DNA from: a virus
Lineage: Duplodnaviria > Heunggongvirae > Uroviricota > Caudoviricetes
DNA length: 37,205 nucleotides
Reading direction: 5' to 3' (one strand)
IMG/VR virus record: IMGVR_UViG_2711768063_000004
Location: 1 to 37,205 of that record
The notes under the pieces are model-generated. The model did not search any database, was not told the origin of the DNA, and saw nothing but the letters and a program-made list of their open reading frames with translations. Made by a program: the position numbers and the translations under genes. Below are positions 1,132 to 36,271 of the stretch, in pieces (positions within the stretch are counted from its first letter, which is position 1; each line of letters begins with the position of its first letter).

Positions 1132-1503
1132 TCATAAGTACCGATATGATTGCGGGGCCGTTATGTTATCACCTAATGAACTTAGATGAAGTGGTTGGTC
1201 ATAGATTTTTAGATTACCAATTTCTATAGCAAAGGCTTTTTCTTTGCTATGAAAATAAGAGTCAAAAAATTGTTTACTGATACCTGCGTATTGGCTTGTT
1301 TTTTCCCATACAATACTCGGCTTATCTTCTATAACATCTGCAATGTCAAATTCAGCAACAACTTTACCGACAGGCATTGTTGAATAAATAACCACAGATT
1401 TTACATCCGTTTTTTTAAAAATACCTTTCCTGAATTCAAACTTCTTCGTCCCATTAAGGATTTTTTCAACAAATTCAGGTTTTATTGACAATAATACTTT
1501 CAT
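1132..1503 (-). CDS. ASCH (PUA-like) domain protein, accessory
   Basis: 123 aa; N-terminus MKVLLSIKPEFVEKILNGTKKFEFRK is typical of ASCH domains. AT-rich; overlaps the upstream gene by 29 nt; same strand as cI and int. Confidence 0.6.
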   Translation of the reverse strand: MKVLLSIKPEFVEKILNGTKKFEFRKGIFKKTDVKSVVIYSTMPVGKVVAEFDIADVIEDKPSIVWEKTSQYAGISKQFFDSYFHSKEKAFAIEIGNLKIYDQPLHLSSLGDNITAPQSYRYL

Positions 1504-2554
1504 CTACAGCACCAAGTTTAATTATATCGTCAAATTGCTCATCGGTTAATTTAACAACACCCCAACGGTTTTTAGGATTTAAACCAATTTCTTTGATTAG
1601 TTTAGCACGGTTTATTCTTTTAGGTAAAGCTAGATTATATGTAAAACTAATAATGTAAGGGTATCTTTTTGTTTGATAGAATTTTTTTAATTCATTTTCA
1701 GAGAATACACTGTATCGTGTACAATACTGTATGAATTCTTTTTCACTATAAAAAGAATCAATATGTCTAATATCTTCAACTACACATAATGACGTTGCGA
1801 CAGAGCGATAATACGCTCTGTTTTCTTTGTCACTTGTTCTGTAAATAACTAAAATGTCATGTCTTTTTATTTTTTTTACGTCATGCATTCTGCATATATA
1901 TATTTTTCTAATGCTATTCGCATGAGATACATCCGTGATTATATCAGGGGACTCTGTGGTGAGTATCGAATCAGGAAACAGTTTTGTATGGAATTCAGGA
2001 TATATGGATAACAGATATTTGTTTTCATCGTTTCTATTATTTATATACGGATAATCAGACAAAATATCCCCTGTAAGATGATTTTTATTCATCTCTCTTA
2101 CTAAGACTTGTTCACTCCCATTAGCAGTTTGTTTTGTAGCAACATGAATAAAACCATAAATTTTGAATAGTCTAATTAAATAATCATGTTTTTCAAAAAC
2201 AGTCACATAGATATCATCTACTTTTTCTTTTAGTGCATGATCAAAAATCTTTTTGAGGAATCTTTGTCCTCGTAGAGTCCCCTTTGGGTTGAATTTAAAT
2301 GTGCCTATTTTTAGATGTTTAGCACGAGTCAAAGGTGGTATTACGTCGTCAATAATACCACGCTCAATTTTCAAGTATAAAAAACCATCAATTGTGTTGT
2401 CATCATTATATAAGACATAAGCTTTTTCTTCGATAGAATTACATTTTTTATTGAACCAATCGATAAATCCATGTTGATAGTCTTTTTTTAAGGAGTCAAA
2501 AAAAACATCGTTAAAATTAACTTCATTAAACTGAATGTGTTTTAATTTTTCCAT
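1475..2554 (-). CDS. Putative GNAT-like acetyltransferase N-domain fused to an ASCH-like C-domain, accessory
   Basis: 359 aa. N-half shows a GNAT-like pattern (IDGFLYLKIE...KIGTFKF...LRGQRFLKKIFDHA...IYVTVF...YGF). C-half restarts with an ASCH-like motif (KYLLSIYPEFHTKLF...RHDILVIYRT). Domain calls are by eye only. Confidence 0.5.
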   Translation of the reverse strand: MEKLKHIQFNEVNFNDVFFDSLKKDYQHGFIDWFNKKCNSIEEKAYVLYNDDNTIDGFLYLKIERGIIDDVIPPLTRAKHLKIGTFKFNPKGTLRGQRFLKKIFDHALKEKVDDIYVTVFEKHDYLIRLFKIYGFIHVATKQTANGSEQVLVREMNKNHLTGDILSDYPYINNRNDENKYLLSIYPEFHTKLFPDSILTTESPDIITDVSHANSIRKIYICRMHDVKKIKRHDILVIYRTSDKENRAYYRSVATSLCVVEDIRHIDSFYSEKEFIQYCTRYSVFSENELKKFYQTKRYPYIISFTYNLALPKRINRAKLIKEIGLNPKNRWGVVKLTDEQFDDIIKLGAVDESIIVNKT

Positions 2555-3687
2555 TTTTTCACCAGTGCAATAAAGTTGGATAATTTTTGTGGTTTAATAA
2601 AGTGAGCGGCAATGTAAGCTACAATAAATGCAATGGTGCAAATTAGATAAATGTCTTTATGCACACCATCTGTTGGAATAAATTTCATTATGTATGCTAT
2701 GGCTGCAGCATAGAACATATATGTAAATATTTTACTAATTTTTGATTTAGTAGTCTTGAACTTCACTACTACAGAGAAGTCACCTAGCCGTGCGCCATCA
2801 TCCTTTTTAGCTTTCCAGTGGTAAATCATAGGATCGTTCTTACCAAAATTGACATTATTTGAAAAGTATTTTTTCCATGTCTCTGATTCAAGAATACGAC
2901 AACCTTGATAGCTTGAACCTGATGCCGATGCTTCGTCAACCATATCTCGTATAACGAAAAAATGATATTTGCTTGGAGTGCAAGAGGCGCTGGCCAGTGT
3001 GGTTGCGACTTCGTTTGGCAAATTTCTTTGTTCGTTAATTCTGAAATCTATAATATCAGAACGTTCAATATTGCTTTTTAAGAATAAATCTTTGGGATAG
3101 AATGTTTTAACAATTGCTTCAACATCAGATTCATTTAGGTTAATTCTGAATCTGATGTAGTAATTGCAATCATTGCAATTATTGCAATTATTGCAATTAT
3201 TGCAATTAGACAAACAATCCTGCAGATGGAAAAATACATATGTCCCATCATTCCTCTTTCTCAATGTGATTCTTTTGTCGAATGCCCCCCCTTGAAAATC
3301 AAGTTTTGTATTAACTATTAGTTTACCTTTTCGTGTTAAATTTAATAATAAGTGTTTCTCGTTTATTGAGTCTTTATTTATGACGTATTCATTAAAAACC
3401 GCGGTGATCAGTTCTTTGCTGCTATCTAGGTTCGTGCTTAAATCAATGAAGTCATCTTTTTCTTTTACAAACGGTAAAAATAAACAGATTGCACCCTGTT
3501 CTGAAATTTCATTATTTTGGGGGCGAGAAAATGATATGCCAAAATCTAGATGATAGCATTTTTGGGATGTGATATTCCAAAAGTTGATGTGTAGTTCGTT
3601 TATAAAATCTGCTTGAGTCTCATTATAATCCTCTCCTGGGCCTTTAGCGTAGTTTCGACATCCCCAAATAGCAAAACTTCTAGACAT
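2542..3687 (-). CDS. Membrane-anchored hypothetical protein with Cys-x-x repeat, accessory
   Basis: 381 aa; two hydrophobic helices at the C-terminus (IFTYMFYAAAIAYIMKF, IYLICTIAFIVAYIAAHFI); internal CNNCNNCNNCNDCN encoded by a 9-bp tandem repeat; AT-rich; starts 31 bp downstream of the cI stop. Confidence 0.55.
   Translation of the reverse strand: MSRSFAIWGCRNYAKGPGEDYNETQADFINELHINFWNITSQKCYHLDFGISFSRPQNNEISEQGAICLFLPFVKEKDDFIDLSTNLDSSKELITAVFNEYVINKDSINEKHLLLNLTRKGKLIVNTKLDFQGGAFDKRITLRKRNDGTYVFFHLQDCLSNCNNCNNCNNCNDCNYYIRFRINLNESDVEAIVKTFYPKDLFLKSNIERSDIIDFRINEQRNLPNEVATTLASASCTPSKYHFFVIRDMVDEASASGSSYQGCRILESETWKKYFSNNVNFGKNDPMIYHWKAKKDDGARLGDFSVVVKFKTTKSKISKIFTYMFYAAAIAYIMKFIPTDGVHKDIYLICTIAFIVAYIAAHFIKPQKLSNFIALVKKWKN
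3163..3207. repeat. Five tandem copies of 9-bp unit ATTGCAAT(T/C) inside the CDS
   Basis: attgcaatc then attgcaatt x4, read directly. ATTGCAAT is itself an 8-bp palindrome. In-frame (3 codons per unit), encoding a Cys-Asn-Asn repeat on the minus strand. Confidence 0.9.
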
Positions 3688-3718: not shown

Positions 3719-4669
3719 TTATATTATAGTCATTAGGTTGAACTGGCATTTTGCAACCGGTTTGAGTTCATTAATTGCACAGTCAAAAGTAATATTTGAG
3801 TTTGAGCTCGTTACTCTTACTTTACCTACCGGTATTCTTATTACCTCGCGAACACTGATTTTTCCTTCAATTTCAACAAACCACAATCCATCGCTAATTT
3901 CGTCAAATTTCCCCTCAGCTAAGTATATCCTGCTGCCATCAAATATTAACATTGGATCTTTAATCGACTTAGGTACAAAGGACTTATCAAAAATGTAGTT
4001 ACCCTTCCTTTCGAGTGCACCATCGGCAAGCACGTACTTGTTTATGCACACAATGTTTTCATTTTGTGAACTTTTATTAAGTCCTTGCCCATCAACAAGC
4101 CATTTCAATGAGAATCCAGTTTCAAGGGCACACTGTATTATCCAATCAGCAGGGAATGAGTCACGCATATAGCGTGTAGCTAATGTACTTTTTGATATAC
4201 CAAGATGATCTGCCAGTGCTTGACGAGTTTTAAAGCCATAAGCCTTAACTATCCGTTCTATTGCCGCTTTTCCTCCCTGATTGAAATCGACTTGATGATC
4301 ATTATGAAAATTAAAGGAAGGTATATGATTGTCACTTTCAACGTCATCTCGCTGGTCGTCTTCGTTGTCTCCATTTGGAACAGTTGAGAGTATTTCTTCT
4401 GCCGCATCAGAACCAAACGCCAGCCATTCCAAAGATGCTCCTGTTTCCATTGAGCATATAACAACCCAATCAGCAGGAAATGTATCGCGAGCATATCTAT
4501 TGGCCATCGTACTTTGTGAAATACCAAGATGGTTACAGAACGCTTGGCGTGACTTGAAGCCATAAGCTTTGAGTATTCGCTCAATGACTTTCTGTCCCCC
4601 ACGATTCTGCATAACAATGGCTTTCGCATCCTCTTTGATATGGCGAAATGTGAATTTTTGAGTTGACAT
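3719..4669 (-). CDS. cI: 186 CI-type immunity repressor with duplicated N-terminal DNA-binding domain
   Basis: 316 aa. Two paralogous N-terminal modules (ERILKAYGFKSRQAFCNHLGISQSTMANRYARDTFPADWVVICSMETGASLEWL and ERIVKAYGFKTRQALADHLGISKSTLATRYMRDSFPADWIIQCALETGFSLKWL), then a C-terminal region with the 186 CI-like motif SDGLWFVEIEG. Divergent from the apl/cox-like gene. Confidence 0.75.
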   Translation of the reverse strand: MSTQKFTFRHIKEDAKAIVMQNRGGQKVIERILKAYGFKSRQAFCNHLGISQSTMANRYARDTFPADWVVICSMETGASLEWLAFGSDAAEEILSTVPNGDNEDDQRDDVESDNHIPSFNFHNDHQVDFNQGGKAAIERIVKAYGFKTRQALADHLGISKSTLATRYMRDSFPADWIIQCALETGFSLKWLVDGQGLNKSSQNENIVCINKYVLADGALERKGNYIFDKSFVPKSIKDPMLIFDGSRIYLAEGKFDEISDGLWFVEIEGKISVREVIRIPVGKVRVTSSNSNITFDCAINELKPVAKCQFNLMTII

Positions 4670-4757
4670 GTTCGTTATGTGAACCTATTCTCCGTTTTGT
4701 GATGTTGTTATCACGATTAAAACCAGCTCACCACAAGCTAAAAGGAGATGTTGCATC
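4670..4757. promoter_or_regulatory. Lysis-lysogeny switch region between divergent cI and apl/cox-like genes
   Basis: 88-bp intergenic region between divergent start codons; contains the dyad tgtgat-N6-atcacg (4698..4715) and an AGGAG ribosome-binding site ahead of the 4758 start. Promoter positions not resolved. Confidence 0.45.
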
Positions 4758-4979
4758 ATGACACCTAACATTTCAATAACTCTGAATACGCCACACGTCA
4801 CAATCGAGCGTTATAGCGAACTTACTGGCCTTTCAATCGACACAATCAACGATATGCTGGCAGATGGTCGCATCCCTCGCCATCGCCTTCGGAAAGACAA
4901 GAAAAGGGAAAAGGTAATGATCAACCTTGCTGCTCTTACCGTTGATGCACTTACTGATTGCAATGTTGTATTCAACTAG
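4758..4979 (+). CDS. Apl/Cox-like small DNA-binding regulator or excisionase
   Basis: 73 aa, first gene of the rightward early operon, divergent from cI. Positional analogue of 186 apl / P2 cox. Confidence 0.55.
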
Positions 4980-5011
4980 TTCCATTTTGGGGTACATCAA
5001 GAGGGGCGACT

Positions 5012-5521
5012 ATGTTTGATTACCAAGTTTCCAAACATCCACATTTTGATGAAGCCTGTCGTGCATTCGCACTGCGCCACAACCTGGTGCAACTGGCAGA
5101 ACGTGCAGGCATGAATGTGCAGATCCTGCGGAACAAGCTGAACCCAGCTCAACCTCATTTATTAACCGCACCAGAAATCTGGTTGCTTACCGATCTGACT
5201 GAAGATTCGACGCTGGTAGATGGTTTTTTGGCTCAGATTCATTGTCTGCCATGTGTGCCGATTAATGAGGTGGCAAAAGAGAAACTGCCACATTACGTCA
5301 TGAGTGCAACCGCAGAGATCGGGCGTGTTGCTGCAGGTGCGGTATCTGGCGATGTAAAAACCAGTGCAGGTCGTCGTGATGCCATCAGCAGCATTAACTC
5401 TGTAACACGACTGATGGCGCTGGCTGCTGTTTCATTGCAGGCCCGTTTACAGGCTAACCCTGCGATGGCGAGTGCGGTTGATACCGTAACTGGCCTCGGT
5501 GCTTCATTCGGTTTGCTGTGA
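5012..5521 (+). CDS. cII: Phage 186 CII-like transcriptional regulator
   Basis: Start taken at the internal ATG ([25 protein letters not shown]...); closely resembles 186 CII as I recall it; position after apl matches 186. Confidence 0.75.
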
Positions 5522-10169: not shown

Positions 10170-10189
10170 TACTGTAAATATAAACAGTG
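10170..10189. promoter_or_regulatory. LexA (SOS) box
   Basis: TACTGTAAATATAAACAGTG matches CTGT-N8-ACAG, about 40 bp upstream of the 10231 start; overlaps a TATACT -10-like hexamer. Confidence 0.7.
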
Positions 10190-10230
10190 GTTATGTATAC
10201 AGTATTGCTTGTGGTGTCATAGGAGGAAAG

Positions 10231-10419
10231 ATGCAGGACTATTTTTTGGAGTCTTTGAAGCTCCAGCGCATTGATTTTTTTCTTAAGCTTGTAGCGGCTA
10301 GTGAGTGTAGTGATGAAGAGAAGGGGCTGGCTTTGCAGTGGGTTTCTGAACTGACAGATGAACTCATGGCAAAAATCAGAACCCACGAATACAACCGCTC
10401 AATGGATGTCATCAGCTGA
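10231..10419 (+). CDS. Small hypothetical protein, first gene of the SOS-controlled operon (possible Tum-like antirepressor part)
   Basis: 62 aa; AGGAGG ribosome-binding site at 10221..10226; immediately downstream of the LexA box. Confidence 0.5.
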   Translation: MQDYFLESLKLQRIDFFLKLVAASECSDEEKGLALQWVSELTDELMAKIRTHEYNRSMDVIS

Positions 10420-10429
10420 GGTGACCTTT

Positions 10430-10663
10430 ATGCGCATTGAAATAATGATCGATAAAGAGCAGAAGATTAGCCAGTCTACCCTGGACGCCCTTGAATCCGA
10501 GCTTTACCGCAATCTGCGCCCCCTGTATCCCAAAACGGTAATTCGCATCCGCAAAGGTAGCTCTAACGGTGTGGAACTGACCGGACTGCAACTGGACGAA
10601 GAAAGAAAACAAGTGATGAAGATTATGCAGAAGGTGTGGGAAGACGACAGCTGGCTGCATTAA
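10430..10663 (+). CDS. DinI-family protein (186 Tum C-domain-like)
   Basis: 77 aa; MRIEIMIDKEQKIS...LDALESEL...VRIRKGSSNGVEL...VMKIMQKVWEDDSWL follows the DinI pattern as I recall it (MRIE...AL..EL...V...WE..D.W). Confidence 0.7.
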   Translation: MRIEIMIDKEQKISQSTLDALESELYRNLRPLYPKTVIRIRKGSSNGVELTGLQLDEERKQVMKIMQKVWEDDSWLH

Positions 10664-11723: not shown

Positions 11724-12419
11724 ATGAATCAGGTTCATGAGTCACATCAAATTAATCTTTTCACAACCAATGAAGAAATATCGCCTAGTCCTGCTATAAT
11801 TTTTCCAGTTCTACAGGAGTTAAGCGGATTTAGCCTCATCCCAACATTTGGACAGGAAGTAAATGCTTTATCTGGTGAGATGAAACAGATATTGATTATG
11901 ACAAATCCAGAGCAAACTTATCGTATTGAATTTGCAAGCCATGCAATCGTTATAAATGCTATGTCTACAAATCATGATGAATTTGTTGAGAAATCTGTAA
12001 ATGTTATCAGTGCAATGTTAAAGATATTTCCCAATAAGAAATTTAATAGAATTGCATTATTAAATGCACAGATTTTTACTGCTTCTTTGGATAAATATCA
12101 ACAGTTGTATGATAAATTATTCACATACAATGAAGTTTCTCCTTTTGAGTGGGATAACAGAATTGCGCTTCGTAAAAATATTGAATTTAATAATGAGGCA
12201 ATAAATAGCATCAATGCTATCAGTCGCAAAGAAGTTGCTGTTATGAATCATAATTCAGGCAAGCCATTTGATGCGATAATGTTTGAAATCGACTCTAATA
12301 CGTTGCCAACAAATACCGATTATAGATTTGATTTTAATCAGGCGATTCAAGTGTTGCGTAATTTGAATGATAATAACAGAAATTCACTGAGTGTACTGCG
12401 TCGTTATATTGAGTTATAG
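11724..12419 (+). CDS. Hypothetical protein, gene 1 of cos-proximal accessory cassette
   Basis: 231 aa, AT-rich, no recognisable motif or P-loop; AAGGAAA ribosome-binding site. Confidence 0.6.
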   Translation: MNQVHESHQINLFTTNEEISPSPAIIFPVLQELSGFSLIPTFGQEVNALSGEMKQILIMTNPEQTYRIEFASHAIVINAMSTNHDEFVEKSVNVISAMLKIFPNKKFNRIALLNAQIFTASLDKYQQLYDKLFTYNEVSPFEWDNRIALRKNIEFNNEAINSINAISRKEVAVMNHNSGKPFDAIMFEIDSNTLPTNTDYRFDFNQAIQVLRNLNDNNRNSLSVLRRYIEL

Positions 12420-12427
12420 GAACTATT

Positions 12428-13075
12428 ATGGCAGGTTATAGCGATTATATATTTAATATAGCGGCAAAGGTTATCAGCAATGCTGTGCCTATTAATGAGT
12501 TTAATGTAATAACTAATCGTTTTTTTAACAATCTCCATGATGAATTTAAAACGTCGCGTTTTCATGTGCATGATTCAGCCTCAAGTAATATGATTGCTGA
12601 GTCTGGTAACGTTGGAAGGATTAATTCACAAAGTAGTGAGATAGCCTTCGATATACAAGTGCAGCGTTGTTTAAAAAACGCGTTGCTATATCTTAAGTCT
12701 GAAAACTATATTGAAGGCGAGATAACTAAAACTCAAATTTATCTTGAATCTTTGTCTGAAAAAAACAAGTCATTATTTTTAGAAGTCTTTCAACGTGTCT
12801 GGGTTTCAATCTATTACTCACCAGAGTATCTTCGAAATTTTTTATACATAGCCGCATCTATGGACTATGAATTGATGAAGGATCGCGCAGATGTCCTTAT
12901 ATTAGGATGTTCTGCACATGAAGATGTTTTAGTTCAGGAGGCAGCTATTAGGGCTTTCGAATCTTGGGAAAATCCAGAGCATGCTTCACATTTGCGTGCA
13001 ATGAGAAAGTTTAATGAAAAATGGATTGAAGATTATAGACAAAGTACTATAAATTTTTTGGAGAGTCTAAAATGA
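12428..13075 (+). CDS. Hypothetical protein, gene 2 of cos-proximal accessory cassette
   Basis: 215 aa, starts 8 bp after gene 1; no recognisable motif. Confidence 0.6.
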   Translation: MAGYSDYIFNIAAKVISNAVPINEFNVITNRFFNNLHDEFKTSRFHVHDSASSNMIAESGNVGRINSQSSEIAFDIQVQRCLKNALLYLKSENYIEGEITKTQIYLESLSEKNKSLFLEVFQRVWVSIYYSPEYLRNFLYIAASMDYELMKDRADVLILGCSAHEDVLVQEAAIRAFESWENPEHASHLRAMRKFNEKWIEDYRQSTINFLESLK

Positions 13076-13587
13076 CATTCCTATTAAGGAAGTTTTCATA
13101 CCCAAAATGGGAGAAAAACAAAGGATTATCTCCAGATGAGTTTTCAGCTGATTCAATTACTGGCTGTACGCGCACAACTGCGAATAAGCTTTCAGTTTGG
13201 AGATCAGAAACCACTGATTTTAAATCTGATTATGTAGAAAAACTTATTGTTGCTTTAGCTACGACGATGCCGTCACCTGCTACTATAGACCTTGTTTGGT
13301 TGAAAGAAGAATGGTTTTTTGAACATGGAATTACATTGGAAGATAATCCAGGTGATACTAAATATGAAAGTGTGAATAATCTTCATAGCGACATTGCAAA
13401 TCTAAATCATAGGCGTCTAGCTATGGTAGGTTCACATATGCTTGAACAATTAGAGGGGGCAGGTAATTATCTCAGGGTTAGTAAAAGAGAACTGATTTCA
13501 CTTGTGGTTAAGTGGATGGAAAAAGAAGGTGAGTTTACTATAGAGGATTTGGAGGAAAAATGGCAGGAACAGTTGAATAAATTATAA
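13072..13587 (+). CDS. Hypothetical protein, gene 3 of cos-proximal accessory cassette
   Basis: 171 aa; ATGA start/stop overlap with gene 2 suggests translational coupling; no recognisable motif. Confidence 0.6.
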   Translation: MTFLLRKFSYPKWEKNKGLSPDEFSADSITGCTRTTANKLSVWRSETTDFKSDYVEKLIVALATTMPSPATIDLVWLKEEWFFEHGITLEDNPGDTKYESVNNLHSDIANLNHRRLAMVGSHMLEQLEGAGNYLRVSKRELISLVVKWMEKEGEFTIEDLEEKWQEQLNKL

Positions 13588-34131: not shown

Positions 34132-34350
34132 ATGATGATTTGCCCACTGTGTGGAAGTGCCGCCCATACTCGCAGCAGTTTTCAGGTATCTTCATTGACC
34201 AAAGAGCGTTACAACCAGTGCCAGAATATTAACTGCAGCCATACTTTTGTTACCCATGAAACTTTTGTTCGTTCGATTGCAACGCCAAACGAGTCAAATC
34301 CGGTTCAGCCGCATCCAATGAAATCAGGACAGGTGGCGCTCTCTCTTTGA
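34132..34350 (+). CDS. ogr: Late gene transcription activator Ogr (zinc-finger)
   Basis: 72 aa from the internal ATG; CPLCG...C.N.NCS motif and overall similarity to P2 Ogr as recalled. Confidence 0.85.
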   Translation: MMICPLCGSAAHTRSSFQVSSLTKERYNQCQNINCSHTFVTHETFVRSIATPNESNPVQPHPMKSGQVALSL

Positions 34351-34585: not shown

Positions 34586-36271
34586 TTATCCTAATCCTGG
34601 CCATACCATGACGATGATTGTCCCTGCCAGCGTCAGCAGGACGTTGGCGATTGCGTAGGTGCCCGCATAGCCCAGTGCAGGGATGTTACTGCGAGCTGTA
34701 TCACTGATGATCTCCATTGCCGGCGCGCAGGTGCGTGCGCCCATCATTGCGCCGAACAACAGTGCGCGGTTCATTCGCAATACATAAGCACCGAACAAGA
34801 AACAGATAACCACGGGCACAAGACTGACAATTAATCCGGCAATCAACATCTGACCGCCAATCGCGCCCAGGCCGTTATTAATACCGCTACCGGCGCTCAG
34901 ACCAACGCCTGCCATAAACACCATCAAGCCGAACTCTTTCACCATGCTTAATGCACCTTGCGGAATGTAACCGAAGGTCGGGTGGTTAGCACGCATAAAG
35001 CCCAGCATAATTCCGGCGAATAACAACCCGGCAGCGTTCCCCATGCCGAAACTGAATGTGCTGAACTGGAAGGTGATCATCCCGATCATCAGCCCAATAA
35101 CAAAGAAGGCGCAAAATGCCAGCAGGTCAGTGACCTGGCTGTGAATCGAGATAAAGCCGATGCGATCGGCGATGGTTTTTACGCGACGGGCATCACCGCT
35201 GACTTGTAAAACGTCACCTTTGTTAAGCACGACGTTGTCATCTATCGGCATCTCAATCTGGCTACGAATGACGCGGTTAAGGAAGCAACCGTGATCGGTC
35301 AACTTCAGTTGTGCGAGACGTTTACCTACAGCGTTATGGTTTTTAACGACCACTTCTTCAGTGACGATACGCATGTCGAGAAGGTCACGATCGAAAACTT
35401 CTTTACCGTTACGGAAGCTGGGATCGAGTCGGGCATGGGCGTCGGGATAGCCTACCAACGCTATTTCATCGCCCATTTGTAGCACGGCATCACCGTCTGG
35501 ATTTGCCAGAATCCCGTTACGTCGAATACGTTCAATGTAGCAGCCGGTTTGTCGATAAATACCCAGTTCACGCAGATTTTTGCCGTCGGTCCAGGCCACC
35601 AGCTCCGGGCCGACGCGATAGGCGCGGATCACCGGTAAATAAACCTTACGGTTGGCATCAGTGTCCAGGCCACGTTCGCGGGCGATTTGCTGGGCGCTGG
35701 TCTGTAAGTCCTGATGCTGCAATTTCGGCAAGTAACGCGCACCAACAATCAAACTCACCAGACCGATTAAATAGGTTAAGGCATACCCGAGGCTCAGATT
35801 ATCCAGTGCCAGTGAGAGCTGCCTGCTTTCCATGCCGGAATGACGCAGTGTATCGCCAGCACCGACCAGAACCGGTGTCGACGTCATAGAGCCTGCTAAC
35901 ATACCGGCCGTCAGGCCAATATCCCAGCCAAACAGCTTACCTAACCCTAAGGCGATCACCAGCGCACTGCCAACCATCACCAGTGCTAACATTAGGTAAT
36001 TTTTCCCATCGCGAAAAAAAATGGAAAAAAAGTTCGGTCCGGCTTCGACCCCGACGCAGAAAATAAACAGCATAAAGCCAAGATTAAGCGCATCGGTGTT
36101 AATGCTGAAATGTTGTTGGCCTAATAACAGCGATACGACTAAAACGCCAATGGAATTACCCAGTTGGATCGAACCAAGTCGTAACTTTCCGAGACATAGC
36201 CCAAGCGCGAGGACCACAAATAATAACAGAATGTAATTCCCATTTAACAATTCGGCGACGTTTATATTCAC
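34586..36271 (-). CDS. ybjL: Putative transport protein YbjL (YidE/YbjL family; host gene)
   Basis: 561 aa polytopic membrane protein with duplicated halves; length and sequence match E. coli YbjL as I recall it. Confidence 0.8.

Follow-up and report, generated by a model that had tools for sequence, protein, structure and literature searches.

The cI gene and its two-headed product

The window analysed here, that is, the whole 37,205-nucleotide stretch of IMG/VR virus record IMGVR_UViG_2711768063_000004 (positions 1 to 37,205), is a P2/186-like prophage; its first 25 kilobases (kb) match Klebsiella phage 4LV2017 (Peduoviridae, Elveevirus) at 95.6% identity across 75% of their length. We focused on its cI gene, which encodes an immunity repressor of 316 amino acids (aa) carrying two DNA-binding domains, hereafter heads, in each subunit. 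To the left of cI lie two cargo open reading frames (ORFs) and then int, and to its right apl, a cII-like gene, fil, DUF5347, DUF2732, a TraR-like gene, dam and a replication gene, in the same order as in relatives. This is the layout of a 186-type switch, with cI running leftward beside int, apl–cII–fil running rightward, and the predicted lytic promoter pR face to face with an inferred lysogenic promoter pL. The original prediction for this stretch had named cI as the immunity repressor of such a switch, and the assignment holds: the gene sits between int with its cargo and apl–cII, and the -35 hexamer of pR lies over its start codon. The regions of the gene are the following.

3719..4669, including the stop codon, minus strand: cI, two-headed 186-type immunity repressor of 316 aa (ORF list; Pfam, two PF07022 and one PF16452)
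4607..4669, minus strand: N-terminal tail (N-tail), residues 1-21 (MSTQKFTFRH...), homologous to the N-tail of single-headed D1-class repressors
4406..4606, minus strand: head 1 (D1), residues 22-88, recognition helix SQSTMANRYAR (Pfam and internal-repeat alignment)
4283..4405, minus strand: inter-head linker, residues 89-129, disordered, acidic and fast-evolving (predicted local distance difference test, pLDDT; charge; ratio of nonsynonymous to synonymous divergence, pN/pS)
4079..4282, minus strand: head 2 (D2), residues 130-197, recognition helix SKSTLATRYMR (Pfam and alignment to structure 2fjr)
3734..4054, minus strand: C-terminal oligomerisation domain (Phage_CI_C), residues ~206-312 (PF16452; aligns to the 186 CI C-terminal-domain structure 2fkd, an entry of 14 chains)

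Specifically, Pfam finds Phage_CI_repr (PF07022) twice in cI, at about residues 27-89 and 135-197 (E 5e-60), and Phage_CI_C (PF16452) once, at residues 209-308 (E 1.7e-25). Residues 22-86 of head 1 align with residues 130-194 of head 2 without a gap, with 42 of the 65 positions identical (65%; E 6e-33), and the linker (residues 87-129) contains 13 acidic residues and a single basic one, for a net charge of -12. Two tandem 186 CI-type DNA-binding domains, an acidic linker between them and a lone C-terminal domain behind both had all been proposed for this gene, and all three are confirmed; so is the larger size of the protein, 186 CI being 192 aa long, and the interval singled out at the time, 4088-4594, brackets both heads, from the coding start of the second through the end of the first. 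The 186 CI structure (PDB 2fjr, a 189-residue chain) matches residues 136-307 only, that is, head 2 and the C-terminal domain (E 2.7e-28). An AlphaFold2 monomer model, built on 34 homologues, contains two five-to-six-helix heads (residues 25-85 and 133-193) and a beta-rich C-terminal domain with pLDDT >90, while the linker (residues 89-128) stays at pLDDT <50. By sequence, fold and gene context cI fits the 186-type CI family, from which it departs only in the feature of one head per subunit, and an E. coli protein 99% identical to it bears the label 'phage repressor protein CI'.

Integrity and spread of the two-headed form

The uninterrupted ORF is preserved across 45 distinct viral-contig coding sequences and in many genomes, which rules out that two adjacent genes were joined here by a frameshift or by ORF calling. 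The wider suspicion that cI is an artefact or a decaying gene, either a sequencing-error fusion or a prophage remnant with a junk extra head, could draw on the truncation of some relatives (P0047, L099) and on the replaced spacer of L120-L124; we consider it barely credible, given that the 99% identical protein and the 45 coding sequences are in frame, that pN/pS is low in both heads, that an isolated phage, PsP3, and several deposited genomes of Klebsiella phages share the architecture, and that the window resembles a complete P2-like prophage.

In a protein search spanning 5.8 billion proteins, CI lengths read from the best 120 matches were bimodal, with single-headed proteins of ~185-206 aa and two-headed ones of ~291-330 aa; 45 of these best 120 were two-headed, two of the 45 being truncated. 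Two-headed proteins labelled 'phage repressor protein CI' occur in E. coli, Salmonella, Klebsiella, Citrobacter, Enterobacter, Kosakonia and Edwardsiella. The form is also that of the cI of the E. coli CFT073 prophage (308 aa) and of those in the deposited genomes of Klebsiella phage 4LV2017 and of the ST437-OXA245phi4.2 group. At the DNA level, 442 of 5426 complete E. coli genomes contain a match to head 1, and in 253 of these the match spans at least 80% of the head (about 5-8%). When 1.84 billion cluster representatives (50% identity) were searched exhaustively by HMMER, head 1 found 184 clusters, and two heads were present in 20 of the 74 near-full-length representatives. All six divergent representatives scanned carry two PF07022 and one PF16452; those of them with a name, as well as sister clusters, are from Citrobacter, Hafnia, Pantoea, Edwardsiella and Shewanella. 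Among loci from bacterial genomes sampled at one genome per species, just 2 of 80 were two-headed.

All together, these data indicate that the two-headed form is a recurrent minority architecture and not the standard form of the family. The idea that it is rare, or special to the prophage under study, is contradicted by PsP3, CFT073, 4LV2017 and the several lineages described below. The opposite concern, raised with the original prediction, that two heads are simply the standard form of the family, is right in part: they are a common alternative, but not the majority form (20 of 74 clusters).

Two further classes of match were set aside. A free-standing head 1 protein family was rejected, since the short head 1 matches are contig-end fragments, and of the long proteins with 3-8 matched stretches, the four scanned ones belong to unrelated repeat families or generic HTH_3 families. 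Separately, some two-headed repressors keep both heads and are truncated before the C-terminal domain (L009 from Dryocola sp. BD586, P0047, 229 aa; L099, 237 aa). These may be decaying prophages or natural variants.

Selection on the regions of cI

Nonsynonymous (pN) and synonymous (pS) divergence were compared over 990 pairs of 45 distinct Type A coding sequences (Type A being the lineage of the window); the distances are uncorrected and near saturation, so that only the ranking of the following values is meaningful.

N-tail (first 21 codons): pN 0.21, pS 0.34, ratio 0.62
Head 1: pN 0.083, pS 0.69, ratio 0.12
Linker: pN 0.51, pS 0.62, ratio 0.82
Head 2: pN 0.16, pS 0.71, ratio 0.23
C-terminal domain: pN 0.43, pS 0.66, ratio 0.64

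As judged from this ranking, both heads are under purifying selection, head 1 more strongly, and the linker is almost free. The latter ranges from 37 to 48 aa in the 45 relatives and is net negative in 44 of the 45, being otherwise free to vary. Synonymous divergence in the N-tail (4607-4669) is about half that of the other cI regions, which suggests a constraint at the DNA level, with coding sequence doubling as operator-like site 1 (see below) and upstream pR.

Ancestry of the two heads

A head-domain tree resolves several two-headed lineages: Type A, which includes the window; Type B, from Kosakonia and relatives (P0039 and P0033); Type C, from Edwardsiella (P0044 and P0046); a group of PsP3 with Pantoea, Citrobacter and Hafnia; a Shewanella group; and P0264, whose own two heads are sisters in the tree. 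The two halves of the Type A protein can each be traced to ordinary single-headed repressors. On one side, Type A residues 116-308 align to the entire 198-aa P0073 repressor at 52% identity, and the 190-aa P0028 repressor is 77% identical to head 2 plus the C-terminal part. Because the alignment covers P0073 end to end from its residue 1, we conclude from these comparisons that head 2 and its tail (residues 116-316) are a complete ordinary repressor of the P0028/P0073 class, including the vestigial N-tail of the parental repressor, which precedes head 2. On the other side, cI residues 1-86 are 74% identical to the N-tail and head of the single-headed L162 repressor (208 aa), with an identical recognition helix, SQSTMANRYAR. 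When IMG/VR was scanned with head 1, 125 contigs were found, and the best 80 of them comprised ~58 two-headed loci and ~22 single-headed ones, the latter encoding proteins of 206-209 aa with SQSTMANRYAR as their sole helix. Type B (P0039) repeats this pattern: the DNA of its head 1 and of the operators beside it is 86% identical to the single-headed P0160 locus, and its head 2 groups with the P0073 class.

In conclusion, sequence comparison identifies the two-headed proteins as chimeras, in which the head, N-tail and operators of one class stand on a whole repressor of another. The first step may have been a tandem duplication in frame, with recombination later, or else the head may have been grafted directly.

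Exchange within the gene is also visible at closer range. By comparing the window (3719-4115) with L001 (E. coli 504239), head 1, the spacer and apl are found to be 97% identical, and the linker and C-terminal domain strongly different; likewise, cI is merely 57% identical to the cI of 4LV2017 (L002), while the remaining phage is ~96% identical. This pattern places recombination breakpoints inside cI, so that the module binding DNA is uncoupled both from the oligomerisation domain and from the cargo.

Operator-like sites at pR

The spacer between cI and apl measures 88 base pairs (bp), and the switch region contains the following promoters and candidate sites.

4663..4691, plus strand: predicted lytic promoter pR (TTGACA, 17 nt, TATTCT; sigma-70-like, 10 of 12 matches in a consensus scan)
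4641..4654, plus strand: operator candidate site 1 (GGCGAAATGTGAAT), upstream of the -35 hexamer and within the first cI codons
4670..4683, plus strand: operator candidate site 2 (TTCGTTATGTGAAC), between the -35 and -10 hexamers
4690..4703, plus strand: operator candidate site 3 (TCCGTTTTGTGATG), immediately past the -10 hexamer
4748..4776, minus strand: inferred lysogenic promoter pL, with -35 TTGAAA (4776-4771) and a weak -10 CAACAT (4753-4748), placed by analogy with the annotated 186 pL relative to the apl start

The inferred pL is convergent with the predicted pR. The -35 hexamer of pR overlaps the cI start codon, an overlap (TTGACAT/start codon) that is found in all related loci, and the DNA encoding the N-tail (4607..4669) overlaps both site 1 and the -35 hexamer. 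The three candidate sites are direct, asymmetric repeats, spaced 29 and 20 bp apart. The same overlap, the same three sites and the same spacing of 29 and 20 bp are found in 19 distinct single-headed SQSTMANRYAR loci. Specifically, site 1, which is kept in the two-headed loci even at synonymous positions, reads TGGCGwwwTGTGAT in single-headed D1-class loci; site 2 in the 19 closest distinct loci of that class reads GGCGTTTTGTGATCC, with GGCGATTTGTGATCC in one locus; and the position of site 3 in the single-headed SQSTMANRYAR class is occupied by TCCGnnnTGTGAA, at the same 20-bp distance from site 2. A second head in the subunit had been expected to change operator geometry. This expectation fails, because the single-headed relatives have the same number of sites, at the same positions and with the same spacing. 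That the asymmetric CG-N4-GTGA sites are composites, with one half for each head, was rejected as well, phages with SQSTMANRYAR as their only head having the same asymmetric sites.

The operators of the class that supplied head 2 are of a different kind. In single-headed P0028-class loci one perfect TCAC-N5-GTGA lies beside the cI start, and in Type B there are two; the P0073 class has TCTCATTTGGGTA and TCTCTTATGCGAT at the corresponding places and the palindrome TCCCATTTGGGGA. Type A has lost this last palindrome plus ~7-10 bp, no TCAC-N5-GTGA occurs within ~1 kb of cI in any Type A locus, and neither parental palindrome of head 2 (TCAC-N5-GTGA of the P0028 class, TCCCATTTGGGGA of the P0073 class) was found in the switch region of the window. 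On this comparative evidence, the pR operator set of the prophage belongs to the class of head 1, an assignment that the missing palindromes support. The link to immunity specificity suggested with the original prediction is therefore plausible, although in another sense than intended: the pR operators are of head 1's class and not of the class of head 2 and its tail.

Among Type A loci, the SQSTMANRYAR helix of head 1 is invariant in all distinct loci retrieved, and sites 1 and 3 are retained. Site 2 alone of the three sites varies, as does head 2 alone of the two heads; the left half of the site is degenerate, and its right half reads GTGA, GCGA, GAGA or GGGA. By comparison with the 19 single-headed loci, site 2 departs from the head 1 consensus in two-headed phages only. 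Within Type A it sorts with the helix of head 2: ATRYMR goes with G(T/C)GAACC, ANRYMR mostly with GnGATCC and ANRYLR mostly with GAGATC.

Another possibility is that head 2 is the working operator head, as in single-headed repressors, and that the tethered head 1 adds avidity, reaches extra sites or makes of each subunit a built-in dimer. The link between head 2 and the oligomerisation domain is of the usual short kind, like that of 186 CI, and site 2 of the window ends in GTGAAC, a half-site of the palindrome of the P0028 class, which shares the head 2 helix. We nevertheless regard this arrangement as unlikely: sites 1 and 3, the promoter layout and the start-codon overlap are all of head 1's class, head 1 is the more strongly conserved of the two, and asymmetric sites, which are also present in single-headed phages, do not call for two different heads.

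Apart from the above, five two-headed loci on IMG/VR contigs (L120-L124) have the spacer to the right of the start codon wholly replaced by unrelated AT-rich sequence, and their site 1 is mutated (ATGGCTAAATTTTAAT). They may be rearranged or defective prophages.

A model of the two-headed repressor

What is established is the architecture of cI and how well it is conserved, its descent as a chimera and, for the operator-like sites, which sites they are and how they are spaced. Building on them, we favour, with moderate confidence, the view that cI is a functional chimeric 186-type repressor with two DNA-binding heads per subunit, of which head 1 reads pR. According to this model, head 1 and its N-tail would have been fused, through a flexible acidic tether of ~40 residues, to a complete repressor of the second class, and pR with its three direct-repeat sites would have arrived together with head 1. 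Because the promoter and its sites came with it, head 1 is the head that most likely reads pR; it would do so at least at sites 1 and 3, repressing the lytic operon and setting immunity at pR. The C-terminal domain would oligomerise, presumably as a wheel, as in 186. Head 2, which sits next to the oligomerisation domain, also does something, since purifying selection keeps it; most economically, it would bind the relaxed site 2, at which the parallel variation and the sorting described above hint, weaker DNA wrapped on the oligomer, or both. Induction by the SOS response would pass through a LexA-controlled split-Tum antirepressor.

Several points weigh against this model. Which head binds which site, like the formation of an oligomer, we infer, heads having been matched to sites by comparison throughout. 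The domains of the AlphaFold2 model are confident, but at a predicted template modelling score (pTM) of 0.41 the arrangement of the heads is not predicted. The exact pattern CGWWWTGTGA occurs three times in the whole window, on one strand and all within 4644-4702 (starts 4644, 4673 and 4693), for 0.73 copies expected; this pattern was derived from the same three sites, so that independent support comes from their conservation elsewhere and not from the count. No site for head 2 was found that matches its parental palindromes. As to site 2, its co-variation with the head 2 helix is weak, because the variable base (GnGA) also varies in single-headed SQST-helix loci with an unchanged helix, and because site and helix are ~450 bp apart, so that linkage is possible; the sorting may reflect shared ancestry rather than recognition. 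Finally, two candidates for operators outside pR were rejected: the inverted repeat at the apl–cII junction as a class-specific operator, being common to all repressor classes, and the late-activator (ogr/B) promoter region as the place of a second operator class, being 98% identical in KP12, with its single head, and in two-headed phages.

The conservation of head 2 could also be read as dual immunity, head 1 controlling the phage's own pR and head 2 repressing superinfecting phages of the parental class. This proposal, which overlaps with our model and which we hold to be rather doubtful, is favoured by three observations: the heads descend from different classes, and ordinary single-headed repressors of each are found within the same host genera; purifying selection acts on head 2, yet its parental palindromes are missing from the switch region of the window; and the recurrence of the form in several lineages fits a generic benefit. 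However, binding of head 2 to site 2 or to weak sites explains the conservation equally well, cross-immunity is purely hypothetical, and recurrence is also explicable by a few duplications followed by recombination. A broader notion, that two-headed repressors are a general evolutionary device to change or stack immunity, the head and operators of one phage being grafted onto the complete repressor of another so that two operator classes are read at once, is conceivable, and we offer it as speculation. If it were true, the distal head would read the phage's own pR and the proximal head a second class, whether this lies in the same genome or belongs to superinfecting phages; lysogens would be doubly immune, and immunity could switch without an unrepressed intermediate. 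If head 2 does face other phages, prophage immunity would be broader than repressor classes suggest.

The SOS module

Repressors of the 186 CI type do not cleave themselves under RecA stimulation, and induction goes through a LexA-controlled, Tum-type antirepressor. As far as its genes tell, a module at 10172..10663 would provide for this.

10172-10187, plus strand: LexA box CTGTAAATATAAACAG, at the head of the module
10231-10419, plus strand: 62-aa ORF, probable split-Tum antirepressor (phrog_698), downstream of the LexA box
10430-10663, plus strand: DinI-like ORF, 41% identical to the C-terminal half of 186 Tum

For the 62-aa ORF we found no Pfam match and no similarity to the N-terminal half of 186 Tum. 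In Fels-2 and PSP3 the tum gene is split and its upstream gene is the antirepressor; antirepressors of the 186 type act on CI by preventing operator binding (PMC3121763). Among Klebsiella, E. coli and Salmonella phages whose repressors differ, the 62-aa protein keeps 98-100% identity (Fels-2, 98%); where the repressor is single-headed, in phages of several repressor classes that include Fels-2, SopEPhi, KP12 and ST13-OXA48phi12.1, the identity is 88-100%.

The presence of this LexA-boxed split-Tum module, together with the fact that 186-type antirepressors block the CI–operator interaction, lends some appeal to the thought that one of the heads is not a DNA binder but serves the SOS antirepressor as its receptor or decoy and so tunes inducibility. 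We judge this quite improbable. The 62-aa protein does not track the second head, both heads have intact helix-turn-helix motifs, and each type is the sole head of ordinary repressors elsewhere. The narrower idea of head 1 as an antirepressor-specific receptor was rejected, the 62-aa ORF being nearly identical in single-headed phages, without co-variation.

Comparison with known systems

The CI protein of coliphage 186 is modelled as a wheel of seven dimers, with one head per subunit, that wraps pR and loops to flanking sites; the distal operators FL and FR lie ~300 bp from pR and loop to the wheel. 186 CI comprises the same two Pfam families as the cI described here, with one head per subunit instead of two. 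The neighbourhood is also the same (int, cI, pR/pL, apl, cII, fil), with convergent promoters and a LexA-controlled Tum-type module; 186 has three operator sites over pR, where the window has three candidate sites. The operators differ: in the annotated record those of 186 are 17-bp inverted repeats, ATTCAC-N5-GTGAAT, at FL, FR and pB, and no such palindrome is present in the switch region of the window. The spacing of the pR sites is ~21 bp in 186 (PMC3675496), compared to 29 and 20 bp here.

A two-headed counterpart is found in Salmonella phage PsP3, a classical sequenced relative of 186 (genus Eganvirus), whose cI (NP_958086.1, 286 aa) likewise contains two Phage_CI_repr and one Phage_CI_C. 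It is collinear with the window cI over both heads and the C-terminal domain, at 31% identity, with an inter-head gap of ~24 aa, shorter than the linker of the window. The double head of PsP3 probably arose independently, because head 1 of its group forms a separate, fast-evolving clade.

The two single-headed classes share complementary parts of the locus. The SQSTMANRYAR class (~207 aa, L156-L174) has head 1, the N-tail, the pR/start-codon overlap and the three operator-like sites in common with the window, site 2 being nearly invariant (one substitution in 19 loci), but the C-terminal domain that immediately follows its head is its own, and its Apl and right spacer half are different. The P0073/P0028 class (190-198 aa) shares head 2, the C-terminal domain, apl, cII and the right spacer half (TCACGATT...GCTCACCACAAGCC); its palindromic pR operators (TCCCATTTGGGGA or TCAC-N5-GTGA) are those lost in two-headed Type A loci.

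Two related DNA-binding domains in one polypeptide are known from other folds. Engineered single-chain 434 repressors carry tandem DNA-binding domains in one chain. M. tuberculosis Mce3R is reported to bind a non-palindromic site with a double TetR motif (PMC11667970). Both have unrelated folds and no oligomerising wheel domain, and they serve as analogies only. Membership in the P2 C-type repressors, raised by the direct-repeat operators, was rejected: these are single-domain dimers of ~99 aa acting on direct repeats (PMC2995052), and both size and Pfam families differ.

186 CI is among the best-studied alternatives to lambda CI, and the wheel model underlies quantitative work on cooperativity and DNA wrapping. 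A natural and widespread version with what would be 28 heads per wheel offers a ready test of that model. The finding overturns nothing; it provides a natural experiment, both for the 186 wheel model and for the movement of immunity modules among P2-like prophages, as the chimeric ancestry suggests that a head and its operators travel as one module, apart from the oligomerisation domain and the downstream defence cargo. Spacers of 88-125 nt were noted in a study of 18 CI proteins (PMC3448106), which does not mention the duplicated head, although it analysed the repressors of both CFT073 and PsP3. A description of a two-headed 186-type repressor was not found by full-text searches that reach few subscription journals, an absence that is not proof; the architecture is apparently undescribed. 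What is new is the recognition of the two-headed form and the evidence for a head-plus-operator graft, the sequences themselves having been in databases since PsP3.

Neighbouring genes and further observations

The genes directly to the right of the switch region are separated by an inverted repeat.

4758..4979, plus strand: apl, Cox-like excisionase and repressor, 73 aa (phrog_575, E 9.6e-32)
4980..4996, plus strand: imperfect inverted repeat GTTCCATTTTGGGGTAC at the apl–cII junction, in the FR/pE position of the 186 annotation
5012..5521, plus strand: cII-like activator, 169 aa (phrog_101, E 7.7e-57)

The junction repeat, in the form GTTCCATTTTGGG(A/G)TA, is present in nearly all readable junctions, covering every single-headed class and the Type A and B two-headed loci, and its sequence resembles the pR palindrome of the P0073 class.

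Between int and cI, the 359-aa cargo ORF at 1475-2554 (minus strand) matches the PADLOC candidate defence family PDC-M11A (E 4.6e-139) and phrog_6345; a PDC-M11A gene also follows cI in the two-headed locus L093. The cargo ORF is located in a defence hotspot known from P2-like phages. Directly downstream of cI, a 381-aa ORF (2542-3687, minus strand), for which no Pfam, PHROG or PADLOC match was found, carries a CNNCNNCNNCND repeat and a hydrophobic C-terminus; it may be a partner of the PDC-M11A gene, because the two overlap by 13 bp.

Between the SOS module and the portal gene, three co-oriented ORFs of 231, 215 and 171 aa, overlapping or nearly abutting, occupy 11724-13587 (plus strand) and match solely PHROGs of unknown function (19817, 21208 and 10743); this region may be a second cargo or defence island. 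At the far end of the window, a 561-aa membrane-protein ORF (34586-36271, minus strand), just past the ogr-like gene (34132-34350), appears to be host DNA, so that the right prophage end and attR are expected at ~34.35-34.55 kb.

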